Below, piece by piece: positions 1,330-62,098 of a DNA stretch of 64,000 bases; position 1 is the first letter of the stretch; the number at the start of each line of letters is the position of its first letter. The DNA is taken from positions 98,903 through 162,902 of the forward strand of contig CAVVFV010000012.1 of the NCBI GenBank assembly GCA_963747695.1, read 5' to 3'. The position numbers and the translations under genes were made by a program. The notes beneath the pieces were generated by a model. It did not search any database. It saw only the letters and a list, made by a program, of their open reading frames with translations, and had not been told where the DNA came from. The stretch is from Candidatus Falkowbacteria bacterium. GTDB taxonomy: Bacteria > Patescibacteriota > Patescibacteriia > Patescibacteriales > WJLG01.

Positions 1330-1947
1330 ATGCTCAAAAAAGCGATCATTCTAAGCTTGGCCCTGGTCTCGGTCATTGGAATTTCCAGTGTGCTTGGTCA
1401 AGCAAAAATCAACGCTGCTGTGGCCAGTGTCGGCTATGGCGGAAGCTCCGCTCCGACCTCGGTTTCTTATTGCTCCAGCGTTGTTTACGGCGATTGGAAG
1501 CCGTGCGCCAACGGTTGGCAGTATCGCGATGTTTTAAGTCAGTCTCCCGCAAATTGCAGTTTAACCGCGGCGCAACAATCAGTCAGATCAATGGCTTGCG
1601 GCACGACTCCGGTTGGCGCGGTAACGCCGACGACTCCCGCCACTCCCGCTACGCCCCCTGCTCAAGTTACTTCGCCTGCCGTTCCGGCGACTCCTGCGCC
1701 GATGTATAAATTTACGCGCAGCTTGTCGATGGGTTTAAGCGGCGCGGACGTGATGGCTTTGCAAAAGTATCTCAACGCCAAGGGTTTCTTGATTGCTAAA
1801 TCCGGTGCCGGCTCACCGGGCAAAGAAACGACTAAATTCGGCGCCTTGACCAGACAAGCTCTGATCAATTTCCAAAAAGCCAACAAGATCTCGCCGGCCG
1901 TCGGATTCTTCGGTCCGCTCACCAGAGCATTCGTCAGCTCTCACTAG
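1330..1947 (+). CDS. Secreted protein with C-terminal peptidoglycan-binding (PG_binding_1-like) domain
   Basis: N-terminal signal peptide (MLKKAIILSLALVSVIGISSVLGQA), a Pro/Thr/Ala linker, and a C-terminal motif GLSGADVMALQKYLNAKGFL...FGALTRQALINFQKAN typical of PG-binding domain 1. Confidence 0.75.
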   Translation: MLKKAIILSLALVSVIGISSVLGQAKINAAVASVGYGGSSAPTSVSYCSSVVYGDWKPCANGWQYRDVLSQSPANCSLTAAQQSVRSMACGTTPVGAVTPTTPATPATPPAQVTSPAVPATPAPMYKFTRSLSMGLSGADVMALQKYLNAKGFLIAKSGAGSPGKETTKFGALTRQALINFQKANKISPAVGFFGPLTRAFVSSH

Positions 1948-3606: not shown

Positions 3607-6018
3607 ATGAACAATACCGCCGGGCTAGGCTTGCCCGAAGCGAAAAAAAGATTAAGCGAATTCGGCCCCAATCAAATTTACGAACCGGAGCGGATCAGTT
3701 TTTTCGGCATCGCCCGTCATGAAGTGACTGAACCGATGATTTTGTTATTGCTGGTCGTCGGCATCATTTACAGCGTCTGGGGAAACTTAGGCGATGCGAT
3801 CACGATTTTTGCCGTGATTTTCGCTTTGGTTTTCGCGGAAGTTTATACCGAATTCCGCGCCAAGAAGGCGATCAGCGCGTTAGGCGAAATTGCGGCGCCC
3901 AAGACTAAGGTGAAGCGCGGCGGGGAGATCGTGGAAATCGATTCGACGGCGGTCGTACCCGGTGATCTGCTGGTTTTGATCACCGGTTCCAAAATTGCCG
4001 CTGACGCGAGAGTTCTGGAAACGTTAGGGATGGAGGTTGACGAATCGGCTTTAACCGGCGAATCTTTCGGGCAAGAAAAAAAGATCGGCCAAGATTTGCT
4101 GGCCGGAACCACGGTAACATCGGGCGAAGGTTTGGCGGAAGTAACCCAGACCGGAAAAAATACCCGGATCGGCCGGATTGCCGCGGCCGCGAAGGCGGTA
4201 AAACCGCCGCGCACCGCCTTGCAATTGGCGATGCGGTCGTTGGCGGGAAAATTAGTCTACGTCGCGATATTCTTCTCGATCTTGATTCCGGTGGTCGGAT
4301 ATTTCCGCGGCCAGGATTTGAAAACGATGATCTTGATCGGTCTGTCGCTCGCTTTTGCGGTCATTCCGGAAGAATTGCCGATCGTCATCACGATGGTTCT
4401 CGGTTTGGGTTCTTATACGCTTTCGCGGAATAATTTTTTGGTTAAGAAATTAAAAGCCGCGGAAACTTTGGGCAATGCGACCGTGATCGTCACTGATAAG
4501 ACCGGCACGATCACCGAGAGCCGGATGAAAATCGCTTCGCTTTTTCCTCCTGATGAGAGTTCGGCGGTAATGGCCAAGGCCCTAGCTTCACTTTCTGTTT
4601 TATCGTTGACGCCGATCGATAAGGAAATCGCCGACTACGCCCACGAGGAAAAAATAAGCCCGGCCGGAGATTTAGTCAGGCAAAGAAATTTCGACGCGGT
4701 ACGCAAGACGCGCAGCATTATCCGTCAGAATGGTTCTGCTTATCAATTGGTGATGAGCGGCGCGCCGGAGGAAATATTTTCCGCTTGCGCCAATCTTGCC
4801 CCGGCAACGCGGGAAGAATTATCGCGGGAAACCGGCAAAGGACGCCGGGTCATCGCTCTGGCTGCCAAAAATATCACCGATGTTAATGCCGATTGGAGCA
4901 ATTTGGAAAATAATTTGGATTTTGTCGGCTTGATCAGCTTTGAAGATCCGCCCCGAGCTGGCGTGAAAGAAACCATCACTCAGGCGACTCGCGCGGGGAT
5001 TCGGACGATTATGGTTACCGGCGATCATCCGCTTACCGCGGCTTTTGTGGCTGGCGAGGTGGGGATTTCTTCTGCGGATAATAGGGCGATCACTGGTGCT
5101 GAATTAGATAAGTTATCCGACCAGCAATTGGAGCAAATGGTCAAAGATCATTCTGTCTTCGCCCGGACGACGCCGGAACATAAATATCGGATCGTCCAAG
5201 CCTTGCAGCGGAACGGAGAGGTGGTGGCGGTAACCGGCGACGGCATCAATGATGTTCTGGCTTTGAAAGGCGCGGATATCGGCATTGCCATGGGCGTCCG
5301 CGGCACGGATGTGGCCAAGGAAGCAGCCGAAGTCGTCTTGGCCGATGATAATTTTGTCACGATCGCCCGGGGAATTTTTGAAGGCCGGAAATTTTTTGAT
5401 AATCTGCAGAAGGGGATCAAATATTATCTGTCAGTCAAAGCAGCTTTGATCGCGATTTTCCTTTTGCCGGCCTTGCTGGGCATCCCGCTCCCTTTTGCGC
5501 CGATCCAGATAATCATTTTGGAATTATTTATGGACCTGGCTGCTTCGAGCGGCTTCGTGGCTGAGCCGGCGGAAAAAGATATCTATACTCGGCGGCCCCG
5601 CAATCCCCAGGAAAATATGTTCGGAAACCAGGAAATCCTTGATTTATTGCTCAAAGGCGGTTTTTTGTTCGCCGCCGTGCTGGGGGTGTATTTTTACGCC
5701 TTACACCGCGAGCTGCCGGTCGTCGAGGCGCAGACCATGGCCTTTTCCGCCTGGGTCATCGGCCACGTCACTCTGGCATTCGTTTCCCGCGCCAAGCAAG
5801 AAACTTTGGCGTCGCTTGGCTTCTTCAGCAACAAGATTATTGATCTTTGGGGGATCGCGGCGGTCGGCTTCCTCTTGGTGGTGATGTATACGCCGGTTTT
5901 CGAACGCCTGCTCCATTTACAGCCGCTTAATTTCCTTGCCCTGCTTGTTATCGCGGCAGTTGTGATTATCTTCATCGGTCTGTTGGAAATTAAAAAATAT
6001 TTTGTTAATAAATCGTAG
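3607..6018 (+). CDS. P-type cation-transporting ATPase (P2, Ca2+-ATPase-like)
   Basis: TGES (ESALTGES), the phosphorylation motif DKTGTIT, MVTGDHPLTA and the hinge GDGINDVLALKGADIGIAMG; about 10 TM helices. Confidence 0.9.
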   Translation: MNNTAGLGLPEAKKRLSEFGPNQIYEPERISFFGIARHEVTEPMILLLLVVGIIYSVWGNLGDAITIFAVIFALVFAEVYTEFRAKKAISALGEIAAPKTKVKRGGEIVEIDSTAVVPGDLLVLITGSKIAADARVLETLGMEVDESALTGESFGQEKKIGQDLLAGTTVTSGEGLAEVTQTGKNTRIGRIAAAAKAVKPPRTALQLAMRSLAGKLVYVAIFFSILIPVVGYFRGQDLKTMILIGLSLAFAVIPEELPIVITMVLGLGSYTLSRNNFLVKKLKAAETLGNATVIVTDKTGTITESRMKIASLFPPDESSAVMAKALASLSVLSLTPIDKEIADYAHEEKISPAGDLVRQRNFDAVRKTRSIIRQNGSAYQLVMSGAPEEIFSACANLAPATREELSRETGKGRRVIALAAKNITDVNADWSNLENNLDFVGLISFEDPPRAGVKETITQATRAGIRTIMVTGDHPLTAAFVAGEVGISSADNRAITGAELDKLSDQQLEQMVKDHSVFARTTPEHKYRIVQALQRNGEVVAVTGDGINDVLALKGADIGIAMGVRGTDVAKEAAEVVLADDNFVTIARGIFEGRKFFDNLQKGIKYYLSVKAALIAIFLLPALLGIPLPFAPIQIIILELFMDLAASSGFVAEPAEKDIYTRRPRNPQENMFGNQEILDLLLKGGFLFAAVLGVYFYALHRELPVVEAQTMAFSAWVIGHVTLAFVSRAKQETLASLGFFSNKIIDLWGIAAVGFLLVVMYTPVFERLLHLQPLNFLALLVIAAVVIIFIGLLEIKKYFVNKS

Positions 6019-47596: not shown

Positions 47597-48511
47597 ATGC
47601 CAAATTTAGATTTTAACGCCGGTTTTGAACCGGAAGAAGGCTCGACTGGCGGGGAAAATTTATCAGGGCTGGGTTTTCATCCGGCTGATGAAAACGAGGA
47701 AGATTTAGAGGAAGAACTTGAGGAAGATAACGAAGAGGAAGATGATGACGAGGAGGATTTTGATTTAGCCGATGAGGAAGATCCCGATGCATCCGCTCCT
47801 GTTTTGGGCGGCATTGCTTCCGGCCCGGTTATAGTTTCGGCGAGTGATGACGAAGACGATGAGGACGAGGACGATGAAGATGGCGAAGAATTGACCGAGG
47901 AGATCGACGAGGATGATGACGAGGAAGATACCGACGAAGCGGCTGCGGAAAATCCGGACGATGATTGCGTGGTCATTTCCAAATCCAAAATTATTTTAGC
48001 CAGGCGGCTTTTGGAAAATATCAAAAAAAGCACTGACGGATTGATTTCCCTGTTTTCCGGCGAGATGGATGACGGCGACGAAGATCGTATCAGCATCGGC
48101 GAAATAACCGACGGGATGGTTGAGAATGACGAAGAAGGCGGCAAAGTCATCGAAGGCGTTTTTGACGGCGAAAATATGATCGGTCCGGACGGCAAAGAAT
48201 ACTCGGTACCGGCTAACTACGCTTCCAAATCGAAATTAGTCGAAGGCGATATGTTGAAATTGACCATCACCGACCGCGGCACCTTCATCTATAAACAAAC
48301 CAAACCGGTCGAACGGAAACGCCTGATCGGCAAATTGGAAAAAGATGTTAACGGAAATTATGTGGTTAAGGCCGAGCACAAGAAATTCCGCGTCATCACC
48401 GCGAGCATCACCTATTACAAAGGCATTCCGGGCGACAAAGTTGTCTTGCTGATTCCAGTTGCCGGCGACAGCGCCTGGGGAGCGGTGGATAATGTAATTA
48501 AATCAAAATGA
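47597..48511 (+). CDS. Hypothetical protein with extremely acidic N-terminal half
   Basis: Residues 30-125 or so are almost pure Asp/Glu runs. The C-terminal 110 aa or so look globular (beta-rich). Confidence 0.55.
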   Translation: MPNLDFNAGFEPEEGSTGGENLSGLGFHPADENEEDLEEELEEDNEEEDDDEEDFDLADEEDPDASAPVLGGIASGPVIVSASDDEDDEDEDDEDGEELTEEIDEDDDEEDTDEAAAENPDDDCVVISKSKIILARRLLENIKKSTDGLISLFSGEMDDGDEDRISIGEITDGMVENDEEGGKVIEGVFDGENMIGPDGKEYSVPANYASKSKLVEGDMLKLTITDRGTFIYKQTKPVERKRLIGKLEKDVNGNYVVKAEHKKFRVITASITYYKGIPGDKVVLLIPVAGDSAWGAVDNVIKSK

Positions 48512-50335: not shown

Positions 50336-50406
50336 TGGGAGATCGTCCAACGGTAGGACGTCGCGCTCTGGACGCGGTAATCATGGTTCGAATCCATGTC
50401 TCCCAG
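50336..50406 (+). tRNA. tRNA-Gln (anticodon CTG)
   Basis: Hand-folded cloverleaf. The acceptor stem is TGGGAGA/TCTCCCA (U1-A72). The D-stem is GTCC/GGAC and the anticodon stem is TCGCG/CGCGG. The anticodon loop is CT-CTG-GA (anticodon at 50368-50370). The T-arm is CATGG-TTCGAAT-CCATG and the discriminator is G. CCA is not encoded. Confidence 0.9.
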
Positions 50407-51895
50407 CACTAATCATACTAAGTCCTTTTTCAGGAAAAATTTTTAACGCTTCGCGAAGCGAAGCGTAAGGTTTGATGGGCACAAATTTGAGTTTTTGATT
50501 TATCAAAAACAAGTTCGAGCCGAAGATTTTTTGGAGATGTGCCTTTTTGGCACATAAATCGTCATTGGTTGCTGAAAGAGCAAGCAATGACGCATCTTTT
50601 ATCCATTCCCGCATCGGTTCGAGCCAACTTCCGGCGTTCTGTTCCAAACGGGCTATTTGCTCCTCAAGTGACCTCTTTTCGGAGATGACAGCCTTCCGGC
50701 GGTTTAGGTAGTCTTCCCGCTCGATATCCTGGGCTACATAGAGGTCGGTGAGCCGCTCGAGGTTGCGGGAAAGGCCTTGTGCCTTCTCCTGCAAGCCCTG
50801 GACGAACGTCGCCGTCTTCTGCTTAGATTCTTGCTCATCTTCATTTGTTCTCCTCGTGAGCTCATTAGCTATCTCTTCCGGCATCGAAAATTCAGATAAT
50901 AGATTTGATAGCTCGGAAACTAAAATTTCTTCTCTGACATACGATTGAGAACATTTGATCGTCGTTGATTTCTTGGTACAGCGATAATAGGTATGAGATT
51001 TTTGGACTTCGGCGGTGATCATTTTTCCGCACTCGCCGCAATGCAATAAACCGCATAAAGGTTTGGGGTCATTTCCGGTTCTCTGCGGATGGCCTCGCTC
51101 AATCAAAACATTTTGGACTTTATCCCATAACCGCTTCTCAATGAGCGGTTTATGCTTGCCCTCATAAATATCGCCGTTATATCGGAATACGCCGTAATAG
51201 AAAGGATTGGAGAGAATAAATTTAGCTCTGTCCTTATGTAGCGGTTTATCGCCCGTGCTTTTAACACCTTGTTTAAAAAGAAAGTTAGAAATATCCTCGA
51301 GGCGATAATTGCCCTTGGAGTAGAGCTCAAAAGCGGCGCGGATGGTTTTAGACTTCCGTCGGTCAACGACAATCGTTTTTGCCCGCACATCGTTTAGATA
51401 GCCGGTCGGAGCCGTGCCGGGAAAGTGTCCTAGTCGCGCCTTCTGCCTAAGTCCGCGGCTCGTATTGGAGCTCAAGTCGCGAATGAATTGGTTGGCCATC
51501 CCCAATTCAACGGCCATTAGTAGAACGTTGTCGTTAGGGCGATAGCTTTTGTCCGGCATTAGGATATGCTCGATTATGCTCTGCTGGATCATCCAGCTTA
51601 TTTGTCCGCCGTCCACCGGATTGCGCGCCAAACGGTCAAGTTTCCAGCAGACTATCCCTTTGGCTTCGCCCTTGTTAATCCGTTTCAGCATATCGTTAAA
51701 GACCGGACGGCCCGGAGCTTTGGCCGATTGTTTTTCCACGAATTCGCGGACGATCTCGATATGTTCGTCCTTGGCCAGCTCGCGCAGTTCGACGAGCTGA
51801 GCTTCGATGGACAAAACTTGTTTGTCCTCGACATCGGTCGATTTGCGGGCGTAAAGAAAATAGTTATTTACCGAAGGTATATTGTTTGTTATCAT
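50381..51895 (-). CDS. Large serine recombinase (resolvase domain, recombinase domain, zinc ribbon, coiled coil)
   Basis: N-terminal YARKSTDVEDKQVLSIEAQ (catalytic Ser context) and WKLDRLARN. The zinc ribbon is CGECGKMITAEV...YYRC, followed by a long C-terminal coiled coil. The last 26 nt overlap tRNA-Gln on the opposite strand. Confidence 0.9.
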   Translation of the reverse strand: MITNNIPSVNNYFLYARKSTDVEDKQVLSIEAQLVELRELAKDEHIEIVREFVEKQSAKAPGRPVFNDMLKRINKGEAKGIVCWKLDRLARNPVDGGQISWMIQQSIIEHILMPDKSYRPNDNVLLMAVELGMANQFIRDLSSNTSRGLRQKARLGHFPGTAPTGYLNDVRAKTIVVDRRKSKTIRAAFELYSKGNYRLEDISNFLFKQGVKSTGDKPLHKDRAKFILSNPFYYGVFRYNGDIYEGKHKPLIEKRLWDKVQNVLIERGHPQRTGNDPKPLCGLLHCGECGKMITAEVQKSHTYYRCTKKSTTIKCSQSYVREEILVSELSNLLSEFSMPEEIANELTRRTNEDEQESKQKTATFVQGLQEKAQGLSRNLERLTDLYVAQDIEREDYLNRRKAVISEKRSLEEQIARLEQNAGSWLEPMREWIKDASLLALSATNDDLCAKKAHLQKIFGSNLFLINQKLKFVPIKPYASLREALKIFPEKGLSMISAGRHGFEP

Positions 51896-51946
51896 AATAA
51901 TGAAAGCATTTCTTATTATTTTTTATATACTTATGATAGCATTATT

Positions 51947-52162
51947 ATGAAGAACGTGCAAAGCCAATCAAAACTTGGAAATAATATCAAAAAGTATCGA
52001 GCCAAACTCGGCTTGACGCAGGAAGAATTAGTAAAAAAATCGGATGTAAAATATACGACGCTTTCCAAAATAGAAAGTGGTGTTATAAAAATGCCAAGCG
52101 TTCAGATAGCGGCAAAAATAGCAAAAGCCCTCCTTGTTTCCATTGAAGATTTAATGAAATAA
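51947..52162 (+). CDS. XRE-family helix-turn-helix transcriptional regulator
   Basis: LGNNIKKYRAKLGLTQEELVKKSDVKYTTLSKIESG is a canonical HTH_3 motif. The gene is divergent from the recombinase, with a 51-bp spacer. Confidence 0.8.
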   Translation: MKNVQSQSKLGNNIKKYRAKLGLTQEELVKKSDVKYTTLSKIESGVIKMPSVQIAAKIAKALLVSIEDLMK

Positions 52163-52782
52163 TAATTTATGAAAAAAACAAGAAAAAAAATTCTCGTGAT
52201 GATTTTTTTAGTATTTTATTTTGCGTTTTCTGCTGCAACGGCCTTGGCGGATGGCGCGTTAGTGGAATACGATCCTTATAATGCAGTAAATTATGATCTG
52301 AAAGCGGAAAATAGCCAGCAGGCGGTAATTAGCTATGAAAAAGGCGTGCAGAAAATGGTTTTGGCCGTTGACTTCGCGAGCCACTTCGAATAGAAATGAC
52401 GTTTGGATTTTTCCGGTTCCCGCCAGTGCCGATAAAATTAAAATGGATATTGTTTCCAACATTCCTTCTCTGGCCGGCCAAAATCTTTCCGATTCGGTTT
52501 CCGCTAATCTTTACTATGTTAAGAAAGATATTGAATCGACTCAGGTCTACCCATTAGTTTATCGGATTATTTCCAGAATTATAACCTTAAACAGTAATCA
52601 GTCATCAGACGAGTTAGGGTTGGGGGCTGTCGATAACGGAACATCAGCCAATCCTGTGCCAGATGTTATTGTCCAGAGCCATTTAGAAAAGGGCGGCATG
52701 GTTTCCGAAATTATTTCCGCCAAGACGGCCGATGGTCTGGCGAAGTATTTTAAAGACAAGGGGTTAAATTTTGACAATAAAT

Positions 52783-53835
52783 TGTTACAATTGCAGCAAT
52801 TAGGGTTACCTTTCGGGTTTCGTTCCAGTGTAAAATGGTGGCAGGATTATTTAACTAATAATTTTGCCCAACCATATGCGCCGAAACACCCAAGAGGCTC
52901 TAATTGCCATGAAAAAAGAAATTTTAGACTCTTGCATTGCCAAAACCATGAAATGCAAGGACGGAGCTAAGCTGCTCGATTTTCACCCGAAATACTTTTC
53001 CCGTCTGAAAAAAGAATATTTGAAATACGGCGTAGCCGCTCTGATTCCCAAACCGCCGGGTCCCAAAAATGGGTTCATCGCTAAAAATCGGACGTCGGAA
53101 ACACTGGAAAATCTGGTCTGTGAATTGGCGCGGAATAATACTTCTTCCGGTCCGACCGAATTGGCCGATCAACTGAAAGATAATTACGGATTTGAAATTA
53201 ATCAATCAACTATTTTTAGAATTCTGCGGCGGAAGAAAATCAGATATTGCCGCGATTACCAGCCGATCATCAAACAAAAACCGCAATTATACTGCCTGGA
53301 AACGCCAGGCGAAGAATTACAGCTGGATGCCTGCCATCCGTTCGGACGCGGCCGGCAACTGGTCTGTTTCGACGCCATTGATGATTGTTCCCGTTATGTC
53401 TGCGCCAAATTGTATGACCGAGAAAATGCCGCCAACGCCATCGAATTCATTAAATATTTAATTCAACACGCCCCATTCACGATTAAAAGGATTAGAATTG
53501 ATAATCGCAGCAAGAACAAAATTCGCGAATTCTGTGAATCGATTGGCATCGAAGTTATCGTCAACGACGCCCACGAGCCGAAACAGAATGGCAAGATTGA
53601 ACGATTTCATCGCACTATTAAACGCTCATTTTTTTGGAAATATTGCGGCTTCTACGACGACCAAGAACTATTGGATTATCGCTTGCAACAATGGCTGGCT
53701 TATTACAACGAGAAACGCCGTCATGGCGGCTATGGCATGAACCGCTTAACGCCAATCCAGAAAATCGCGGCAGCTTTGTTTAATTCTTTAAATATCATTC
53801 CTCGCAAAAAGGTAACCTTGACTATGCAATCGTAC
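52783..53835 (+). mobile_element. IS481-like insertion sequence
   Basis: About 1.05 kb with a single HTH plus DDE (rve) ORF. The imperfect terminal IRs are TGTTACAATTGCAG... and ...(rc) TGTACGATTGCAT, both followed by GGTTACCTTT. It is flanked by a 16-17-bp direct repeat AAATTTTGACAATAAAT (52766-52782 and 53836-53852). Confidence 0.75.
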
Positions 53836-53844
53836 AAATTTTGA
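52864..53844 (+). CDS. IS481-family DDE transposase (integrase-core/rve domain)
   Basis: An N-terminal HTH and the DDE contexts LQLDACH, IRIDNRS and PKQNGKIERFHRTIK. The likely true start is ATG 52876 or 52909. Confidence 0.85.
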   Translation: MPNHMRRNTQEALIAMKKEILDSCIAKTMKCKDGAKLLDFHPKYFSRLKKEYLKYGVAALIPKPPGPKNGFIAKNRTSETLENLVCELARNNTSSGPTELADQLKDNYGFEINQSTIFRILRRKKIRYCRDYQPIIKQKPQLYCLETPGEELQLDACHPFGRGRQLVCFDAIDDCSRYVCAKLYDRENAANAIEFIKYLIQHAPFTIKRIRIDNRSKNKIREFCESIGIEVIVNDAHEPKQNGKIERFHRTIKRSFFWKYCGFYDDQELLDYRLQQWLAYYNEKRRHGGYGMNRLTPIQKIAAALFNSLNIIPRKKVTLTMQSYKF

Positions 53845-55170
53845 CAATAAATCAATTCCTGCCCTGCAAAAGTATTTTGGCCGCGACTATTCCTTTGTCG
53901 CTTCTTGGATAAACACTGGCGCTAATGTTTCGTCAACTGCTGCTGCGATTACCGCCAGCTCGCCCGTGCAAAACAACCCGAATTTGGTGACGGCCGATTT
54001 CATTGATAAGGCTTTTTCTTTTTACTATGGTCAGAGGGGAAGATTCCCAAAGTTTGCAGAGCTTCGTGATCAGATCCTGGATAAGCAACAGAGCGAACCT
54101 CTCCCGCCAGGCCAATTTCATAATGATGCTTATTTTCAGGCACGGCAGGAGGCAATTGATCAAGCGTTGGCTGATGATATAAATCATGATAATACTATAG
54201 TAGCCGATCAGCTCGGCGGACAAAAAATTACCGTACCGACGCAAAAAATGATCGATGATTATGTTAATGGAGAAAGCATTAGCGTCCTCCCTCAAGGTGG
54301 TCAAAGCACCTTTAATGGCCGCGGAATTTATCTTTCTTTTCCGACCGATAAAATTTATTTTCCATTAATGTTGACCAGCGTTTATGGAGATAAAATAATT
54401 CCCGCTGAAATAAGAGTAATCTCGCCGGTCGCTCCGAAAATTTTCGGCAATATCCGCATGTTTGCTAAAACTTCCTACTATTCTAATGCTTCTTTGGTTT
54501 TTCGGGATGCGGCGTTGCAGGATTTTTATTCCGGCAGTAAAACCGATTTTATTTACACAAAGATCGACATCAACGCGCCAGCTAAAAATTTAACTAATGA
54601 TCTTTGGATCAGTCCCAATCCTTCATTCCAATATAATTTAATTTCCCTGTTTAATAATTCCTTGTTCTCTTTCTTTATTATTTTAGTGTTATCTTCTTTG
54701 CTGTCAGGAATCATGGCTGGCTGGTTGCTCTCCAGGTTTGCGTGGAAAAGAACGTTGCGTTTTGCCCTAATCGGTTTTTTTAATGTTTTTAGTTTGATTG
54801 GCTTAATTATCGCCGCCAAGTTTCTATTTGTCGATTTTAAGAATGATGGCTATCCTCAATGGGCTTTTTTGCCCCGCGATTTCCGGAGATGGCTTTTCGT
54901 TCCGTTTTTTTCCGCATTATTTATGGGCTGTACTTGGCTAATCATTGAGCTTATAAAAATAATTATTTAATAAAAAATTATATCATTCTGTAATGAATAA
55001 AATTATGAAAAATTTAGTAATAGAGCAGTTTGAACAAGGAATTATAGAACAGGTATGCAGTATCATGGAAGGCGGAGAAAAGGCTTTTAATTAGAGAAAG
55101 AGTAAATATTAGATTTCATTGCGACATTCAACGATGAAATAACATAAAGTTTTTTATCAGAAAGATCATC

Positions 55171-55347
55171 CTCCAAAAAATCTTCGGCTCGAACTTGTTT
55201 TTGATAAATCAAAAACTAAAATTTGTGCCCATCAAACCTTACGCTTCGCTTCGCGAAGCGTTAAAAATTTTTCCTGAAAAAGGGCTTAGTATTATCTGTG
55301 CTCATCTCTATGACCTCGCTCGAAGGTATTTTTTAGATAATTCTTGA
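55171..55347 (+). pseudogene. Detached inverted copy of the recombinase 3' end, carrying the presumed native C-terminus
   Basis: It encodes LQKIFGSNLFLINQKLKFVPIKPYASLREALKIFPEKGLSIICAHLYDLARRYFLDNS*. The first 115 nt or so are about 98% identical to the reverse complement of 50408-50536. No recombinase-like sequence lies upstream of 55171. Confidence 0.7.
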
Positions 55348-55737
55348 CCCAAAACATGGCCGTCTAACCCCCTCCGGCTGCGGCCATTTTGCCCTGTATG
55401 CGCTCAAGGCCAAGGAGGGCCAACTAGTTGAACAGCTATATGAACAGCTGTATGAACGACTAGTTGAACCCGGGTTCATATAGCAGACACTGTTTTAAGA
55501 AGTTATTTTAGCCAAATTCTAATTTTCAAAAATGAGTGACTATTACTCCGACAACGGAATCAACTGAACGACAAATATATATTATTACTACACTAAGATA
55601 TGACGACAAACTACTAATTACAATTACGACTTAAACCAATATTATATTAAATACCAATATTAATTACTGATATTATTTAATTTCAGATACTTCTTTCCAA
55701 CTACTGGCCAAAACCAAGAAAAAAAATGGGGAATGAG
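55171..55737. repeat. Inverted repeat, left copy (recombinase tail, attP-like core and 438-bp arm)
   Basis: 55171-55299 is the reverse complement of 50408-50536. 55300-55737 is the reverse complement of 61613-62048, with scattered mismatches. It contains the TGAAC array at 55429-55483. Confidence 0.85.
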
Positions 55738-56089
55738 GGGGGAACCCATCGCCCCAACATAAGTCGGGTGATGGGTTGGACATATTTTAAATTATAAATA
55801 CTCACGTATAAAAAAATCCATTTTAATTTTCAGCCTTTGCCTATTGGCTAGTATTTTTCTCAGATCGCTGAATTCGAATGTCACTTTCGCCGTAGAGACT
55901 ATTTTTATCGGATGACCTGAGTGGCTGGTCATTGTTAGTCAAAGAGGCTAGCAATAGTATATCCTCATTTTTGTATGAGAAGATACTATTGCACTTGCGC
56001 TTATTCATAAATATTCACGATGATTTTAGTTGATTTCATCTAATATTAGTAATTTTTACAAATTTCAAGCAATTATTATGTAATAGGAC

Positions 56090-56119
56090 TTGACAAAATA
56101 TAAATACACGATGTATTAT
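56090..56119 (+). promoter_or_regulatory. Sigma70-like promoter for the first cassette operon
   Basis: TTGACA (56090-95), an 18-nt spacer and TATTAT (56114-19), lying 37 nt upstream of ATG 56156. Confidence 0.4.
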
Positions 56120-56155
56120 GTAAATAGACAATACACTTACATAAAATTTAAAAAT

Positions 56156-56371
56156 ATGAGTGAAACAAGATATGAAAGATTTAAAAGGCTAGCAGAGGCC
56201 AGGACGAATATAATTATACAGAGAATTAAAATCCTCGGTAATTGCTCGAATAGGAGTTCATATGATTATACTTCCGAAGATATCGATAAAATATTTAATG
56301 CCATTTCGAAGTATTTGAAAGATACAAGGGCAAAGTTTTCATTTCCTGGAGAACGGAAGTTTAAGTTATGA
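56156..56371 (+). CDS. Small (71-aa) helical protein, first gene of the cassette
   Basis: Start placed at MSETRYERFKRLAEARTN because the longer ORF start overlaps the promoter-like motif. The stop overlaps the next start (ATGA), suggesting translational coupling. Confidence 0.55.
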   Translation: MSETRYERFKRLAEARTNIIIQRIKILGNCSNRSSYDYTSEDIDKIFNAISKYLKDTRAKFSFPGERKFKL

Positions 56372-57831
56372 TTATGAATAATTACGACTCAGGAATCGAA
56401 GAGGTTATCGGTTCTGTTATATCTTTTTTTAATGTAGATAGAGATTTGTTGTTTGGAAATTCCAGAAAAGCAGAAATTGTAGAGGCCAGACATGTATTAG
56501 CCTACTGTTTAAGAAATAAATTTAGACTATCATTCCCAGCAATAGGAGAAATCTTTAACAGGGATCACACCTCAATTATGCATGCATGCGAAAACGCTTG
56601 CATAATTATTGAACGAAATATAAAGTTAAAAGTTTTTATTGATAATTTGATAAATTCAGGGGACAGTGAATATAAAGATATTAGTGAAGTAGAGGGTGAA
56701 GATGTTGGTAAGGTGGTAAGCGAAGATATAAAAACAACTAATAACCCGGAAGAGTTGAAGAAATATTTAACATTTAAACGTGAGTTGGAAGATAAAGAGC
56801 ATGAAAGGAATATGACGGAACTAAGGAAGAACAGAGAGGGTAAAATTTCAAATGCAAAAGCCGAATATGCAAAAGCAGTGATCAATGCTAAAAATGAATA
56901 TGAAAACAACTCTATTAAATTAATAGAAGGAAGAGCTAAAAATATAAGAGAACATAGAAGTGCGATGTTTTGGCTCAAGATTGGTAGGTATTCAGAGGCG
57001 AATGAGTATCTGAGTCCCAAAAAAGAACTTTTAGAAAATAACGATTTCAAAAAGGATATTGTAAATTTCTTGCCTAAATTTAAGACCGAAGTTAAAGAGC
57101 TTGTTTTTCCGATCGAATTTAATAAAGAGTATCTTAGAAATTGCTTTGCAGACTTGGATGACAGATCGAAAAATATTCTTATTAAAAGATATGGTTTTGA
57201 TGATGAAAAAACATCAACACTGGAAGAGATTGCGGTAATTGAAAAAATATCGAGGGAAAGAGTGCGCCAAATTTTGCAAACAGGTATAAATAAAATTTAT
57301 TTTAATAATTGTGGCGGGTTGAGACAGGTTGTTAATTCGGTTGCGGGGAAAATATTAAAAGAAGATTTAGTATTTATTGATAAGTGCTTGAATGAATTTT
57401 TTATATTTAATAAGGAAGATGAGAGTCTGCTCAGAAGACTGATTTTAGTGATAATGCTATCCGTAAAATGGATTAAGGAATTTGATTTTTCTGGCTATAA
57501 ATTTTTCATTAATTCATCTAACGAAAAGAAAGTAATTGAACAAATTGATCATATTAAATTGCTAATCGGAAAGATTGAAGCGGCGATGCCTGATATGATA
57601 TTAGATCGTTGGCAATATGTTCTAAATAATTTAAAGTTGTACGAATTCTTTCAAGATAAAAAACATTTATTGGATGATGCATTTTTAAGAGCCTGCTATG
57701 ATAATTTTTTGTTTGAAAGCGAGATAGTTGTTTATAAAACAGAGGTTCTTAAAAAGTATAAGTCATATAACGATGCTGATCAGGAGCAGGTTGAAGGTGT
57801 CCCCAACGAATATAATGTTTTTTTCGAGTAG
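56368..57831 (+). CDS. Dual-HTH protein: DnaA-domain-IV-like HTH, coiled coil, sigma70-region-4-like HTH, unknown C-terminal domain
   Basis: The N-terminus LLFGNSRKAEIVEARHVLAYCLRNKFRLSFPAIGEIFNRDHTSIMHACEN matches the DnaA C-terminal DNA-binding signature (R..R...AMYL.R.....S...IG..F..RDHTTV.HA). Residues 270-300 or so, LIKRYGFDDEKTSTLEEIAVIEKISRERVRQILQTGINKI, match sigma70 region 4.2. Confidence 0.7.
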   Translation: MIMNNYDSGIEEVIGSVISFFNVDRDLLFGNSRKAEIVEARHVLAYCLRNKFRLSFPAIGEIFNRDHTSIMHACENACIIIERNIKLKVFIDNLINSGDSEYKDISEVEGEDVGKVVSEDIKTTNNPEELKKYLTFKRELEDKEHERNMTELRKNREGKISNAKAEYAKAVINAKNEYENNSIKLIEGRAKNIREHRSAMFWLKIGRYSEANEYLSPKKELLENNDFKKDIVNFLPKFKTEVKELVFPIEFNKEYLRNCFADLDDRSKNILIKRYGFDDEKTSTLEEIAVIEKISRERVRQILQTGINKIYFNNCGGLRQVVNSVAGKILKEDLVFIDKCLNEFFIFNKEDESLLRRLILVIMLSVKWIKEFDFSGYKFFINSSNEKKVIEQIDHIKLLIGKIEAAMPDMILDRWQYVLNNLKLYEFFQDKKHLLDDAFLRACYDNFLFESEIVVYKTEVLKKYKSYNDADQEQVEGVPNEYNVFFE

Positions 57832-57854
57832 TATTAATAATTTAACCTAACCAT

Positions 57855-59357
57855 ATGGGAAAAACAGTTTACAATATAACACCAGACATTTCTCTGATGC
57901 CCAAACTCGGAAAATCTGGCTATTCTTCTCCGCAGGCAATCGCTGAGTTGGTGGACAATTCTATTGATGCCAGAATAGAGGGCAAAGTGTTAAACGTGGT
58001 AATTAAGATAGAGAAAAATGTAATCAGTATAGCTGATAATGGTTCTGGAATGGATGGAACACAATTAGCTGATGCTATGACACTTGCACACTCAAATAAG
58101 GAGAATAAATTGGGCGAGTTTGGCCTTGGCTTAAAAACCGCATGTAATAGTTTGGGGGAGAAATTTGAAATTATAACCTCTCCGGCAAACGATAGCAAAC
58201 AGTATAGGTTTGTATACGATCAAAAGGAGTGGATGGGTAAACAAAAGTGGGAGATCGATATAGAGTCCTTAAAGGCGGAAAGCGATATGCATTTTACCGT
58301 AATTAAAATTGAGAACTTGTCTAAAAATATTCCTGGACTGCCGGATGTTTTAAAAAGAGATATGGAAAGAAGATTCGCCCCTTTTATAGAAAAAGGAGAG
58401 GTTACTATTAAAGTGAACGGGAAAGAGTGCAAGCCTGGCAAGCACGATTTGATTGAAGGATCCAGAAAAGAATTTAACCTCGATGTTGTAAGTGGAAAAT
58501 TTAAAGGTGAAAAAATATATGGCTGGTATGGGTTGCTTAAAGAAGGCTCAAATAAGGGTCTTTATGGTTTTCATACTTATCGAAGAGGGAGAATGATTAC
58601 GACTTATGACAAGATGGTTATCGGTGAACATCCTACAATTTCAAGAATTATAGGTGAGATAAACATGGATTTTGTCTCCGTGACTCACAATAAGAAAGAT
58701 TTTATAAGAGAAAGTGATGAGTTCGCAATGGCAGAGGAATTATTAAAAGAAGAGTTAAAGAATATTCTAAAAGAGGCTAAAAAGAAGTCTGGCCAAGACA
58801 AGATTACGAAAAACGTAATGAACGATTTAGACGTTTGGAAAGAAAAAATCAGTAAGGCGGTAATGGAATCACAGGATTTAAAATGTTATACGTCTCAAGT
58901 TGATATTAAAACGGGAATGGTCAAGGATGATGACGGTAAGGACGAGGAGGTTCTTGGTGAAAAAAGAGAAAGCAAGAAGGGTGGACACGGAACCGTAAAA
59001 CCAAAATCGACAGATGCGGTAAGGGTGCCAAAAAAGGAGAATGAAAATATAAAAAAGATAATTAAGGTAAAGGGTAAAAAATTTGAATTCGATCACGAGT
59101 TCTCTTCTCTGGGTCAAGATTCGGCATGGAAACAATATGAGTTTGACAAGGAAAAAAGAAAAATTGTTGTTTATACAAATATTGATTTTCCAGCATTCTC
59201 AACAACAAAAGACACGGCCTTCTACGCCGTTTTGCATATTGCAGAGTCAATTGCAGAGATCATGGTTACTGAGGTTGGGGAAGAGATAGGTAATTTGCAA
59301 GAGATAAAAGAAATTATTTTAAAAACAGCGTCAATTCTTAAAAACCAAATTGATTAA
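57855..59357 (+). CDS. GHKL-superfamily (MORC/HATPase_c_3-type) ATPase
   Basis: The Bergerat-fold motifs are the N box AIAELVDNSIDA, the G1 box ISIADNGSGMD and the G2 box LGEFGLGLKTA. These are followed by a YRRGRMI segment, a Lys/Glu-rich linker and a C-terminal globular domain. Confidence 0.8.
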   Translation: MGKTVYNITPDISLMPKLGKSGYSSPQAIAELVDNSIDARIEGKVLNVVIKIEKNVISIADNGSGMDGTQLADAMTLAHSNKENKLGEFGLGLKTACNSLGEKFEIITSPANDSKQYRFVYDQKEWMGKQKWEIDIESLKAESDMHFTVIKIENLSKNIPGLPDVLKRDMERRFAPFIEKGEVTIKVNGKECKPGKHDLIEGSRKEFNLDVVSGKFKGEKIYGWYGLLKEGSNKGLYGFHTYRRGRMITTYDKMVIGEHPTISRIIGEINMDFVSVTHNKKDFIRESDEFAMAEELLKEELKNILKEAKKKSGQDKITKNVMNDLDVWKEKISKAVMESQDLKCYTSQVDIKTGMVKDDDGKDEEVLGEKRESKKGGHGTVKPKSTDAVRVPKKENENIKKIIKVKGKKFEFDHEFSSLGQDSAWKQYEFDKEKRKIVVYTNIDFPAFSTTKDTAFYAVLHIAESIAEIMVTEVGEEIGNLQEIKEIILKTASILKNQID

Positions 59358-59733
59358 TTAAACTCAGGAGTACGAAGAAAATTTTGGTTTTATGGACAAA
59401 ATAGAAGTCTGTGAAAAAATAAAAAAAGGTACACGTAAAATTACTGTGATTTTCGAGCACTGTTTAGTTAGTCTGGGATAGGTGTTAAAGTTAACTCGTC
59501 GAGACTTTTATTAACGGGTAATTTAGTTAATGTGAAAGGGTAATTTATTTGATTGATAACTCTGTGACGTAGGGATCCACACTCGATTCCCCGGCAAATT
59601 AGCTGGAATTATATACTAGAAAGGAATAATGGTAGGATTGCTAGATTCAGAAAAATTAGTTCCCAATAGCTCCGCAGCGGCTTTGTTACATAAACTTATA
59701 ACTTGACGTTTACAATAATAAAAATATTAAAAA

Positions 59734-60933
59734 ATGGATACTAAAACTTTTTCAGAGTTATTAAAAGACGATGTTATCGAACAAATACAAAAAGTAGATT
59801 TAAAATCTAAAGATTGGGACGCGTGGTTTTTAAAATGGAAAGATCCAAGCACAAGAACTCAAATTATTTGGATTCTTAGGGATTTAGCAGAGAAGAAAGA
59901 ATATGTAGATAAAATCGTTGCAATAGCGGACATGTATTCGAAAGACCCTAATCCTGATGGAGATTTTGACGACTTAAATAAAAAAATAGAGGCCGGAGAA
60001 GATATCCGTTCTATATATACAGTCAGAGGAACTTTGCCGTGGCTTTTGCAAACATTAATAGCCACTTTTAAAACAGAGTATTACCCAGATATTTTAAAAA
60101 TAACAGAAAGATTAATTGAAGATCAGGTATATTATGTTAGGCAGCAGGCTACCGTTCCTCTTTCTCTTTTTGTAGCCAACCTTCGTGCCAAAAAAAACGT
60201 TGATGGAACAGATTTTAATTTTACTGATAAAGACAAGAGCAGTGCATATAGTCTCTCGTTTAAGATGCTTAGAGAGAATTGCAATCTCCCGCGAGTATTA
60301 GAATACGTGTCTAATGTATTTGATAAGTTAAGAAATATAACAGCGGAAGAGGCAAAAGAAGTGCTAACAACTTTTTGCTATAATGAAAAAAAAATTAATC
60401 CTGAATACCTAACTAGCCACGTAGTTCCTCTAGTAATTTTCTTCGCAGAGTTTAGAAAAAAAAACGAAGCAGGTTTTGATAATTATTGGTTCCAGGTTTT
60501 TTTAGAAAATTTTATTAAAGATGCCAAAGATTCTTGCCTAAGAAGTACATTAATCTGGCATATGTGGCGGGTGATTGAAGAAGATGCGTCTAATTATCAA
60601 TTGGTTAAAAAGTATATACCATTGCTTTTTGAAAATATTTCCGATCATGAGCCTGTGGGGCAGATGGAATTTTTAGTAAATGAAGTTTTAAAAGCTGATT
60701 CCAAAGACGGTATTGAACTATATATAACATTCCTTAATTATTTAGATAAAATGAATTTTTCTAGTTCTTTTAAGCTTTGGCTTACCCAAACAGAGGAAAC
60801 ATTGGAACGTATCAAAAAGATAGATTCTTCAAAAGTATTAGAGATTTTACCCTTACTGAAAGGATTACGTTTAAAAGGTTGTTATGTCGGCGATGAAAAA
60901 ACAATTTTTCCCGAGGAATCGGCTGATAAATGA
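59734..60933 (+). CDS. All-alpha HEAT/ARM-like repeat protein (function unknown)
   Basis: A 399-aa protein with a helical-repeat appearance (e.g. VRGTLPWLLQTLIATF, YYVRQQATVPLSLFVANL) and no catalytic motif recognised. It is preceded by a 376-bp non-coding spacer. Confidence 0.6.
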   Translation: MDTKTFSELLKDDVIEQIQKVDLKSKDWDAWFLKWKDPSTRTQIIWILRDLAEKKEYVDKIVAIADMYSKDPNPDGDFDDLNKKIEAGEDIRSIYTVRGTLPWLLQTLIATFKTEYYPDILKITERLIEDQVYYVRQQATVPLSLFVANLRAKKNVDGTDFNFTDKDKSSAYSLSFKMLRENCNLPRVLEYVSNVFDKLRNITAEEAKEVLTTFCYNEKKINPEYLTSHVVPLVIFFAEFRKKNEAGFDNYWFQVFLENFIKDAKDSCLRSTLIWHMWRVIEEDASNYQLVKKYIPLLFENISDHEPVGQMEFLVNEVLKADSKDGIELYITFLNYLDKMNFSSSFKLWLTQTEETLERIKKIDSSKVLEILPLLKGLRLKGCYVGDEKTIFPEESADK

Positions 60934-60937
60934 TTTT

Positions 60938-61435
60938 ATGAATGAACTGGATAAGTTAAAGACAGAGATTAAAAATGATTTGATGAATATTAAAGAATTT
61001 TTTGAGGCATCTCTTAATTCATATGTTTCAAGTGCTACAAGTGGTAATACCGGAACTCAACCAGTCGCAAATGATCCGATTCAAGGAAGAAAGAAACATT
61101 TTTTAGAAAACTATATGTTAGTTTTTCCCAGCCTTCTTTATAGGACCATCCTTAAATTAGGAAAAAGAATAGAGAAAATTGATCAGGGGTTGTTCACTAT
61201 AAATTTTAAATACACCAATCCAAGAAATAATTTGTGTTATATAGGTCCAAAAGGCAGAGAAGTCGAAGAGATAAGGGGATTGAGAAATTATTTTTTTCAT
61301 GGCGACGATATGCCTAATAAGGGTTTTGCTGATGCGTTTAAAAATTACCCACCAGACAAACCGATTGAACTTGAAGGAAAGGATGTGACGAGGCTTATAA
61401 AAAATTGTGAAGATGCTATAAACAAAATTATTTAA
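60938..61435 (+). CDS. Minimal HEPN-like protein (putative RNase effector)
   Basis: Start placed at ATG 60938, 4 nt after the upstream stop. R-x4-H motif with the typical polar second residue: EEIRGLRNYFFHGDD (AGA codon at 61283). The predicted helical protein is 165 aa, consistent with a minimal HEPN domain. Confidence 0.55.
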   Translation: MNELDKLKTEIKNDLMNIKEFFEASLNSYVSSATSGNTGTQPVANDPIQGRKKHFLENYMLVFPSLLYRTILKLGKRIEKIDQGLFTINFKYTNPRNNLCYIGPKGREVEEIRGLRNYFFHGDDMPNKGFADAFKNYPPDKPIELEGKDVTRLIKNCEDAINKII

Positions 61436-61612
61436 TTGAAATGGGTCTGACCTCTGCTTGATGAAGCAAAGGAATTGAACAGCTAGCCATATAAATAACC
61501 AAAAAACAGCTATATCCTAGCCGCTTATCAACCCCCGTCGTCAATCATCCCGTTAGCCCGTTAATAACCCCGTAATTGTTTTGCCCATCCTGTTTTCACC
61601 CAGTCTTTTCCT

Positions 61613-62048
61613 CTCATTCCCCATTTTTTTTCTTGGTTTTGGCCAGTAGTTGGAAAGAAGTATCTGAAATTAAAGAATATCAGTAATTAGTATTGGTAGT
61701 TAATATAATAATTGGTTTAAGTCTTAATTATAATTAGTAGTTTGTCGTAGTATCTTAGTGTAGTAATAATATATATTTGTCGTTCAGTTGATTCCGTTGT
61801 CGGAGTAATAGTCACTCATTTTTAAAATTATATTTGGCTAAAATAACTTCTAAAAACAGTGTCTGCTATATGAACCCGGGTTCAACTAGTCGTTCATACA
61901 GCTGTTCATATAGTTGTTCAACTAGTTGGCCATCCTTGGCCTTGAGCGCATACAGGGCAAAAGGCCGCAGCCGAAGGGGGTAGACCGGCCATGTTTTGGG
62001 TCAAGAATTATCTAAAAAATACCTTCGAGCGAGGTCATAGAGATGAGC
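61613..62048. repeat. Inverted repeat, right copy (its outer end is attR)
   Basis: The reverse complement of 55300-55737. It carries the TGAAC array at 61867-61927 and ends ...GGTCATAGAGATGAGC at the tRNA terminator hairpin. Confidence 0.85.
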
Positions 62049-62098
62049 TTGTGAAATAAAAATAAGGCGCGCCTAGCGCCTTATTTTTATTTCACAAG
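62048..62098 (+). terminator. Perfect 23-bp-stem hairpin; presumed native terminator of tRNA-Gln (B' arm of attB)
   Basis: CTTGTGAAATAAAAATAAGGCGC-GCCTA-GCGCCTTATTTTTATTTCACAAG. Confidence 0.7.

Follow-up and report, generated by a model that had tools for sequence, protein, structure and literature searches.

Within a window of 64,000 nucleotides from a Candidatus Falkowbacteria bacterium (contig CAVVFV010000012.1, positions 98,903 to 162,902), positions 50408-62048 (11.6 kb) very probably constitute an integrative large serine recombinase (LSR) island of the Candidate Phyla Radiation (CPR), whose attachment site attP lies in the 3' end of the recombinase gene. In the circular form, the recombinase gene would be complete, ending in an alanine codon followed by HLYDLARRYFLDNS and a stop codon, and attP would span this gene end, with the last codons before the alanine codon GCT (the reverse complement of AGC) as P' arm and the tail codons as P arm. 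Integration would then recombine attP with an attB whose centre is the tRNA-Gln 3' terminus, with the crossover within A72-G73-(+1)C, leaving a whole tRNA, no direct repeats and a recombinase whose tail comes from antisense tRNA. Feature coordinates are collected in Table 1.

At the left junction, the recombinase open reading frame (ORF) overlaps tRNA-Gln by 26 nt in antisense, as a preliminary description of this DNA had noted and as the ORF coordinates, ARAGORN and Rfam agree. The protein ends in GLSMISAGRHGFEP, and antisense tRNA-Gln encodes its final seven codons (GRHGFEP) and the stop. The T-arm and the acceptor 3' strand of the tRNA form the B half-site of attB, and the insertion keeps the gene intact. 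At the right junction, the P-arm 27-mer GCTCATCTCTATGACCTCGCTCGAAGG has exactly two copies in the window, at 55300-55326 (plus strand) and at 62022-62048 (minus strand), against a shuffled expectation of 0. The outermost sequence of the right end is the reverse complement of part of the native tail, as had been proposed, and this end segment, C(1), also holds the T-loop-like GCTCGAAGG. The hairpin said to abut the right end has a perfect stem that starts at core base 62048; in the reconstructed attB it makes up the B' side, and it probably serves tRNA-Gln as terminator.

The trinucleotide AGC, present at 50405-50407 and 62046-62048 and as GCT at 55300-55302, is all the sequence that attL, attR and the internal joint have in common, both in the window and in four other loci. 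It had been described as shared by both junctions, and it is the core of the internal joint as well. In these five loci, where attL, intact attP and attR are all present, the common core is AGC in 5/5, and the sharing of AGC alone (3-5 nt) agrees with the serine-type short crossover, without long direct repeats, that had been put forward from the sequence. Since the crossover falls at tRNA positions 72-74, the tRNA stays intact without a duplicated segment; the crossover dinucleotide would be AG or GC. In a clade that targets Phe, Lys, Tyr and Glu tRNAs, the shared bases lie within the discriminator and the encoded CCA. The imperfect dyad symmetry that had also been reported at the joint is weak, with about 5-6 of 13 positions matching by hand count, and a shift scan of P' against P arms gave no clear peak.

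Joining 62048 to 50408 restores the recombinase 3' end and places attP in the coding sequence, as the preliminary description predicted; the reconstructed joint, built from 50408 onward and 62045 backward, reads GGTCATAGAGATGAGC followed by ACTAATCATACTAAG. This form occurs in nature. The 90%-identity cluster of the window recombinase comprises six sequences, one of which (P0122, full length, at least 90% identical, from another metagenome) ends in GLSMIGA followed directly by HLYDLARRYFLDNS and a stop codon, and the reconstructed joint aligns with its contig, L128, over 335 nt at 89% identity, where a single mismatch flanks the core. The ending GRHGFEP, which had been named as telling against the scheme if native to homologues, was found in P0121 and P0125 at the same tRNA-Gln junction, hence it does not contradict the scheme; the elements of these two proteins (L129, L130) occupy the same dnaX-tRNA-Gln junction in related hosts.

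The pattern extends across a family. At a threshold of E <= 1e-20, more than 5,800 homologous proteins were retrieved, predominantly of Patescibacteria (CPR). Antisense-tRNA tails, in which the alanine is followed by PRVGFEPTTNSLTGSCSTIELPRN or AGLGFEPR, end 85 of the best 120 homologues, while native-type tails (xLYDxxRTYFxxx, then a stop) end 8; 13 have other ends and 14 are partial. Tails derived from the junction, as in the window protein, are thus the norm among these homologues. From 80 metagenome loci fetched, 59 have a complete recombinase 3' end, and in 42 of these ARAGORN places an antisense tRNA exactly at the junction: Gln-CTG (12), Asn (10), Gln-TTG (5), Phe (4), Glu-CTC (4), Tyr (2) and, once each, Gly, Lys, Arg, Leu and Glu-TTC, making 11 isoacceptors in all. 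Seven further loci are tRNA-like at the junction, and three of them are tRNA genes with group I introns, which are known from the CPR phylum (PMC13011429). These introns (Rfam RF00028, 75-85 bits) lie within the targeted tRNAs at L047:6128-6338, L057:2541-2827 and L080:9188-9454; because they interrupt the tRNAs, ARAGORN missed these genes, and the recombinase tails read GFEPTTNRLHV and then diverge. Searches of the openly accessible literature returned no account of CPR serine recombinases at tRNA genes, and the family apparently represents a large, undescribed variant group of serine-integrase elements.

Two sets of inverted repeats meet inside the island: 50405-50536 with 55171-55302 (132 nt, 96%) and 55300-55740 with 61610-62048 (about 440 nt in four blocks, 93-96%). 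Their meeting makes 55171-55740 a continuous inverted joint of both island ends, that is, an attP-type site. This second site, attP(2), divides a recombinase module, S1 (50408-55299, GC about 0.44), from the cargo, S2 (55741-61609, GC about 0.33), and the circular form would accordingly consist of the unique segments S1 and S2 divided by two inverted repeats, with a full attP in each. The preliminary description had taken the internal copy for an inverted paralogous fragment that shows the native tail; the tail is confirmed, whereas the fragment is not a relic but a conserved second attP. Among the 34 related loci with more than 3 kb of sequence upstream of the recombinase, 30 have its last ~40 codons repeated in inverted orientation, 1.3-8 kb upstream of the gene. 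In about 44 of 55 loci a native-type tail comes after the internal fragment, which identifies the fragment as an intact attP, and the core-proximal 45 nt are identical between both copies in most loci. The general layout runs from B' through C'(1), cargo, C(2) joined to A(2), an XRE gene with a few others, the recombinase and A(1) to the tRNA.

It is improbable that 55171-55740 is instead what remains of a second, related element, added in inverted orientation, and not a functional part. The difference in GC between the modules (0.44 against 0.33) would fit such an origin, as would locus L073, where fragment and resident recombinase 3' end share only 75.6% identity and the C arms are 100% identical, suggesting a mosaic; yet the arrangement recurs at the same position in the 30 of 34 loci just mentioned, in clades with different target tRNAs, its core-proximal stretch is the identical one noted above, and the site has recombined with tRNAs in L124/L125, L130 and L042. 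The chance that the inverted joint was created during assembly, from a mixture of integrated and circular forms, is practically negligible. Many related contigs do break about 100 nt past the inverted copy, and in L001/L043 the arms are 100% identical with one starting at the contig end, but the window copies are not identical to each other (96% and about 95%), as is also the case in other loci, their inner edges join unique sequence, and the arrangement recurs across samples and assemblers and inside long contigs.

Both attP copies have been used. In L124/L125, from two samples, the 3' half of a tRNA-Asn (Rfam, L124:1-52) is joined at AGC to the inverted fragment, and the full-length recombinase faces away from the tRNA, still has its native tail and precedes the cargo. 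The 14.6-kb contig L130 has host genes to either side of S1, which is present without cargo between two intact convergent tRNA-Gln genes, one joined to the fragment and the other to the recombinase; L042 has the same pattern at a contig end. L130 looks like the product of cassette exchange, or of a secondary deletion or inversion between attP(2) and attB. On these arrangements, attP(2) would be expected to have recombined with tRNA attB sites either as the integration site or secondarily, with loss or relocation of S2. Another candidate for the second arrangement, L108, was rejected, since its fragment copy is degenerate and a hairpin lies between fragment and tRNA.

A recombinase that mainly acts as an invertase, flipping the module or its cargo for phase variation with integration secondary, is highly improbable. 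Each module is flanked by two inverted sites, and there are indeed two arrangements: either the recombinase runs into the tRNA or the fragment borders it, in a ratio of roughly 49 to 3. A flip of S1 would be expected to join the tRNA to ACAGATAATACTAAG and the recombinase 3' end to 55303 onward. No pair of loci was found, however, with the same cargo in opposite orientations, LSRs normally do not recombine attP with attP or attL (PMC3783163), and integration through the second attP explains the second arrangement equally well. Spread to different tRNAs and hosts shows, moreover, the integrase role.

Integration as the primary role agrees with the distribution of close relatives. P0124, on contig L127, belongs to the 90%-identity cluster of the window recombinase. 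Over 2.39 kb of S1, up to the point of an insertion sequence (IS)-like insertion, its locus is 93.6% identical to the window in nucleotides, and its element sits at tRNA-Asn(GTT) in a host of GC 0.52. The recombinase of L042 has 91.9% nucleotide identity to that of the window, while its DnaX is only 63% identical in amino acids and its tRNA-Gln differs in several stems. Such near-identical elements at different hosts and tRNAs indicate that the element is mobile and has moved recently between hosts. The sole match in viral contigs is 22% identical, so that the recombinase family is not represented there as viruses.

The empty site was reconstructed as CATGTCTCCCAGC joined to TTGTGAAATAAAAATAAGG, a plausible attB. 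The earlier proposal that deletion of the island leaves tRNA-Gln followed by the hairpin is supported by analogous hairpins in distant relatives; the exact joint of tRNA-Gln with TTGTGAAATA was not found in either of the large metagenome and genome contig collections. Long perfect hairpins directly 3' of tRNA-Gln occur in the distant dnaX-tRNA-Gln relatives L006, L008, L029 and L035, and the reconstructed attB of other family members has a hairpin at the same place in L100 and, weaker, in L002, where the flank folds into a moderate hairpin only and a TTCGAAC-like stretch, perhaps a direct attP remnant, lies left of attR. The tRNA-Gln 3' 22-mer occurs at 38 loci in GTDB genomes; the nearest DnaX among them is only 64% identical, so that they supply empty sites by analogy alone, with no homologue of the window's downstream gene. 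Exact protein look-ups of the window's DnaX and recombinase returned no record.

Several observations weigh against the proposed integration scheme or against its present operation in the window. The exact empty attB 24-mer CCATGTCTCCCAGCTTGTGAAATA has no match in the metagenome or genome contig collections, and the site is occupied in all of the closest relatives (L129, L130, L042). No candidate recombination directionality factor was identified, and the arm comparison gave no clear shared motif for the P' and B' arms. The loci behind the family counts are phylogenetically related, and these counts are not of independent events. Beside the tRNA, 3 of the 12 core-proximal P'-arm positions depart from the internal copy, so that the window copy could be immobile, and S1 is decayed by the IS-like insertion and a frameshift.

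In this regard, it is possible, although unlikely, that the island arose as proposed but that the window now holds a fixed copy in decay, incapable of further excision. The broken passenger gene, the three substitutions in the P' arm and the failure to find the exact element's empty site and circular joint in the contig collections all fit such a remnant. The recombinase ORF, however, is intact with every invariant residue, S1, apparently with the IS in the same place, sits at tRNA-Asn elsewhere (the contig of L127 ends exactly at the IS insertion point), meaning that IS-bearing copies have moved, and the P'-arm variants SMISA/SMIGA and SIICA both occur at functional junctions in relatives. 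The window copy may still be active.

The target itself may explain how the family recognises its sites. With arms aligned on the core, the tRNA T-loop TCGAAC occupies B-arm positions 14-19, and the P arm carries the same or a near-identical hexamer within native tail codons of the type A/V-R-T. Its outward offset relative to the T-loop is +4 bp in 23 of 26 loci, while in 2 it is +5 bp. The match between B and P arms is highest at shift +4 (0.46, against 0.07-0.33 at other shifts). According to the model for serine integrases, the zinc-ribbon motif lies about 5 bp nearer the centre in attB than in attP, and this distinguishes the sites (Rutherford et al., 2013, PMC3783163). From the arm sequences, we lean towards the idea that the universal T-loop serves as the zinc-ribbon motif and is mimicked by the family's own tail codons. 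Contact of this kind would explain both the conservation of the tail and the easy switching among tRNAs.

The window enzyme is a large serine recombinase by its domains (PF00239, E 4e-21; PF07508; PF13408), its fold, its short crossover and the motif shift between attP and attB. An alignment of 32 sequences, the window protein among them, shows the YxRxS motif to be invariant, and the window protein has every invariant residue. An AlphaFold2 (AF2) model was made for P0002, a homologue 81% identical to the window recombinase, and its top Foldseek matches are the SPbeta, Bxb1, phiC31 and LI integrases (E 1e-19 to 1e-10). The model has a long helical hairpin at 332-412, and the native tail forms the second half of its terminal helix, 481-502 (predicted local distance difference test, pLDDT, about 70-84); one may speculate from the model that the tail swap matters for the protein. 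Small invertases of the Hin/Gin type (about 190 amino acids, C-terminal helix-turn-helix, HTH) are not matched by this 504-residue protein with LSR domains. A further homologue, P0017 (648 amino acids, on a 518-kb contig), is a longer protein with the extra Pfam domain PF13814.

It is tempting, if doubtful, to regard the tail swap and the paired inverted attP sites as a state switch encoded in the recombinase gene itself. Integration through attP(1) would swap the second half of the terminal helix for a tRNA-derived peptide, whereas the enzyme would stay native if attP(2) were used for integration or if attL recombined with the internal attP. The two forms would differ in competence for excision or integration, and directionality would follow from the place of the crossover in the gene, with no need for a separate factor. 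With two sites, cassettes could in addition be exchanged between convergent tRNA genes, as in L130.

Beside the recombinase, S1 carries a divergent gene for an XRE-type HTH protein, probably a regulator, which has a homologue at the same position in at least 25 related loci; the minimal modules L042 and L046 consist of the recombinase and an XRE-type HTH protein only. The disrupted passenger gene, secreted or membrane, is read in the ORFs 52169-52393, 52335-52970 and 53966-54970, and the IS-like insertion is bounded by a perfect 17-nt direct repeat, AAATTTTGACAATAAAT, at 52766-52782 and 53836-53852. As for the cargo, recombinases that are 90-95% identical are accompanied by unrelated cargo or none, with similarity ending at the repeat edge (L046, L129, L130), so that S2, which is low in GC and defence-like in the window, behaves as an exchangeable cassette. 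Relatives typically carry defence-like cargo, such as a methyltransferase with a helicase, GmrSD with restriction-modification, or a KAP NTPase. No phage or conjugation genes were found in the island.

Table 1. Coordinates of the island, its attachment sites and its genes (positions in the window, except for locus L130).
Feature	Positions	Strand	Remarks
tRNA-Gln(CTG)	50336-50407	+	ARAGORN; also Rfam RF00005 at 50336-50406, 60.4 bits
Large serine recombinase	50381-51895	-	504 amino acids; Pfam Resolvase, Recombinase, Zn_ribbon_recom
attL core AGC	50405-50407	+	tRNA A72, discriminator G73 and next base; would hold the 2-nt crossover
A(1)	50408-50536	-	last 43 native recombinase codons; P' arm of attP(1) and left copy of the 132-nt inverted repeat
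XRE-type HTH protein	51947-52162	+	71 amino acids; divergent from recombinase; Pfam HTH_3, E 1.3e-15
S1 passenger gene(s), disrupted	52169-54970	+	frameshift and IS-like insertion
IS-like insertion	52783-53852		about 1.07 kb; rve transposase at 52864-53844 (Pfam rve, rve_3)
Internal inverted intact attP(2)	55171-55740	+	3' fragment 55171-55299; core GCT 55300-55302; tail HLYDLARRYFLDNS and stop; ~440-nt non-coding C region
Cargo S2	55741-61609	+	GC 0.29-0.37
93-amino-acid ORF	56090-56371	+	in S2
DnaA_C and Sigma70_r4 protein	56368-57831	+	Pfam; in S2
MORC/GHKL ATPase	57855-59357	+	Pfam; weak PADLOC MzaB match, E 6.8e-09
Two ORFs without family match	59734-60933, 60884-61435	+	in S2
C(1), P arm of attP(1), now element side of attR	61610-62048	-	native tail encoded on minus strand; core AGC 62046-62048
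Perfect hairpin	62048-62098	+	62048-62070 pairs with 62076-62098; 23-bp stem; -35.4 kcal/mol
L130, S1 between two tRNA-Gln genes	L130:1660-5587		tRNA-Gln(TTG) 1660-1730 (+), joined to fragment; tRNA-Gln(CTG) 5517-5587 (-), joined to recombinase

Some further features accompany these elements. Both inverted copies of the C region contain iteron-like repeats (55421-55483 and 61866-61933), with units GTTCAACTAGT, GTTCATATAG and CAGCTGT and a palindromic CCCGGG centre, which may be protein-binding sites or an origin. An Rfam scan of the island returned the tRNA only, with no known RNA in the C region, and a promoter and terminator scan of 55.1-56.2 kb found nothing above shuffled expectation except a TTGACA/TATTAT pair at 56090-56119. 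At L129:4760-4978, the internal fragment is followed by a different P arm, in which the alanine precedes LIRGQLPNFIG and a stop and CCGAAC replaces TCGAAC; the recombinase of this locus is at least 90% identical to that of the window, and its cargo, which includes an Eco57I-like gene, is unrelated. GC drops from about 0.44 in the recombinase module (host about 0.45-0.5) to 0.29-0.37 in the cargo (55000-62000), and GC skew is strongly positive over the cargo genes. Outside the island, an ORF upstream of dnaX (47597-48511) encodes a 304-residue protein with a very strong enrichment of Asp and Glu in the N-terminal half. In other genomes, distant serine recombinases, 25-29% identical, lie directly after (L019:4049-5420) or about 280 bp from (L041:1079-2741) a tRNA-Gln with the same 3' 22-mer, and targeting of tRNA ends may thus reach beyond the family studied here.

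Compared with the serine integrases of phages and of integrative and conjugative elements (phiC31, Bxb1, A118/LI, SPbeta SprA, TP901-1), the island shares the domain set and fold, the attP x attB crossover of a few nucleotides without direct repeats and the outward displacement of the attP motif. It differs from them in targeting the 3' terminus of a tRNA gene, in CPR hosts; in placing attP within the last codons of the recombinase, so that integration swaps a C-terminal half-helix; in the second inverted attP that its family conserves; and in having no phage or conjugation genes and no identified directionality factor. Tyrosine-integrase islands at tRNA genes (Islander/TIGER) resemble it in their site-specificity for the tRNA 3' end, the preserved tRNA, the adjacent integrase and the defence or accessory cargo. 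The enzyme family and its chemistry are different, however, as is the crossover at positions 72-74; Pfam found no tyrosine integrase in the island, and a repeat scan found no duplicate of the tRNA 3' end at 62 kb.

In archaeal viruses of the SSV1 type, attP lies inside a tyrosine int gene, the target is a tRNA, and int is split into two large parts. The island has in common with them the attachment site in the integrase gene, the tRNA target and an ORF altered on integration, but its enzyme is a serine recombinase that loses only about 15 codons, and its host is not archaeal. The yeast 2-micron plasmid consists of two unique segments divided by inverted repeats that hold the FLP target, and the circle proposed here would likewise have two inverted repeats of about 0.3-0.6 kb, each with a full site for its own recombinase. 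The enzyme family is another one, the island elements integrate, and a conserved replication function is not evident. To our knowledge, this plasmid is the only architectural parallel to the conserved second inverted attP.

Mageeney et al. (2020, PMC7192596) reported use of tRNA or tmRNA genes for only 14 of 297 serine integrases, regarding it as hitherto unreported and still to be proven. In mycobacteriophage BPs and its relatives, attP lies in the repressor gene and immunity depends on integration (PMC4557955, PMC3694055). The island resembles BPs in having attP inside a coding sequence, with integration changing the C-terminus of the product (the native tail being seen in P0122 and in the internal copy, the tRNA-derived tail in the integrated state); unlike in BPs, the altered gene is that of the recombinase itself, a serine enzyme.

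Serine integrases are leading tools for insertion of large DNA, and their use of tRNA genes was described as unreported until 2020 (PMC7192596). The retargeting observed over at least 11 tRNA isoacceptors provides a natural series from which the reprogramming of LSR specificity can be learned, and points to tRNA gene ends as targets that are present in every genome. The many annotations of recombinases with endings of the GFEPTT type are explained as junction products. Together, our findings describe a family of widespread small islands with defence genes in CPR bacteria, whose mobile elements are little known.

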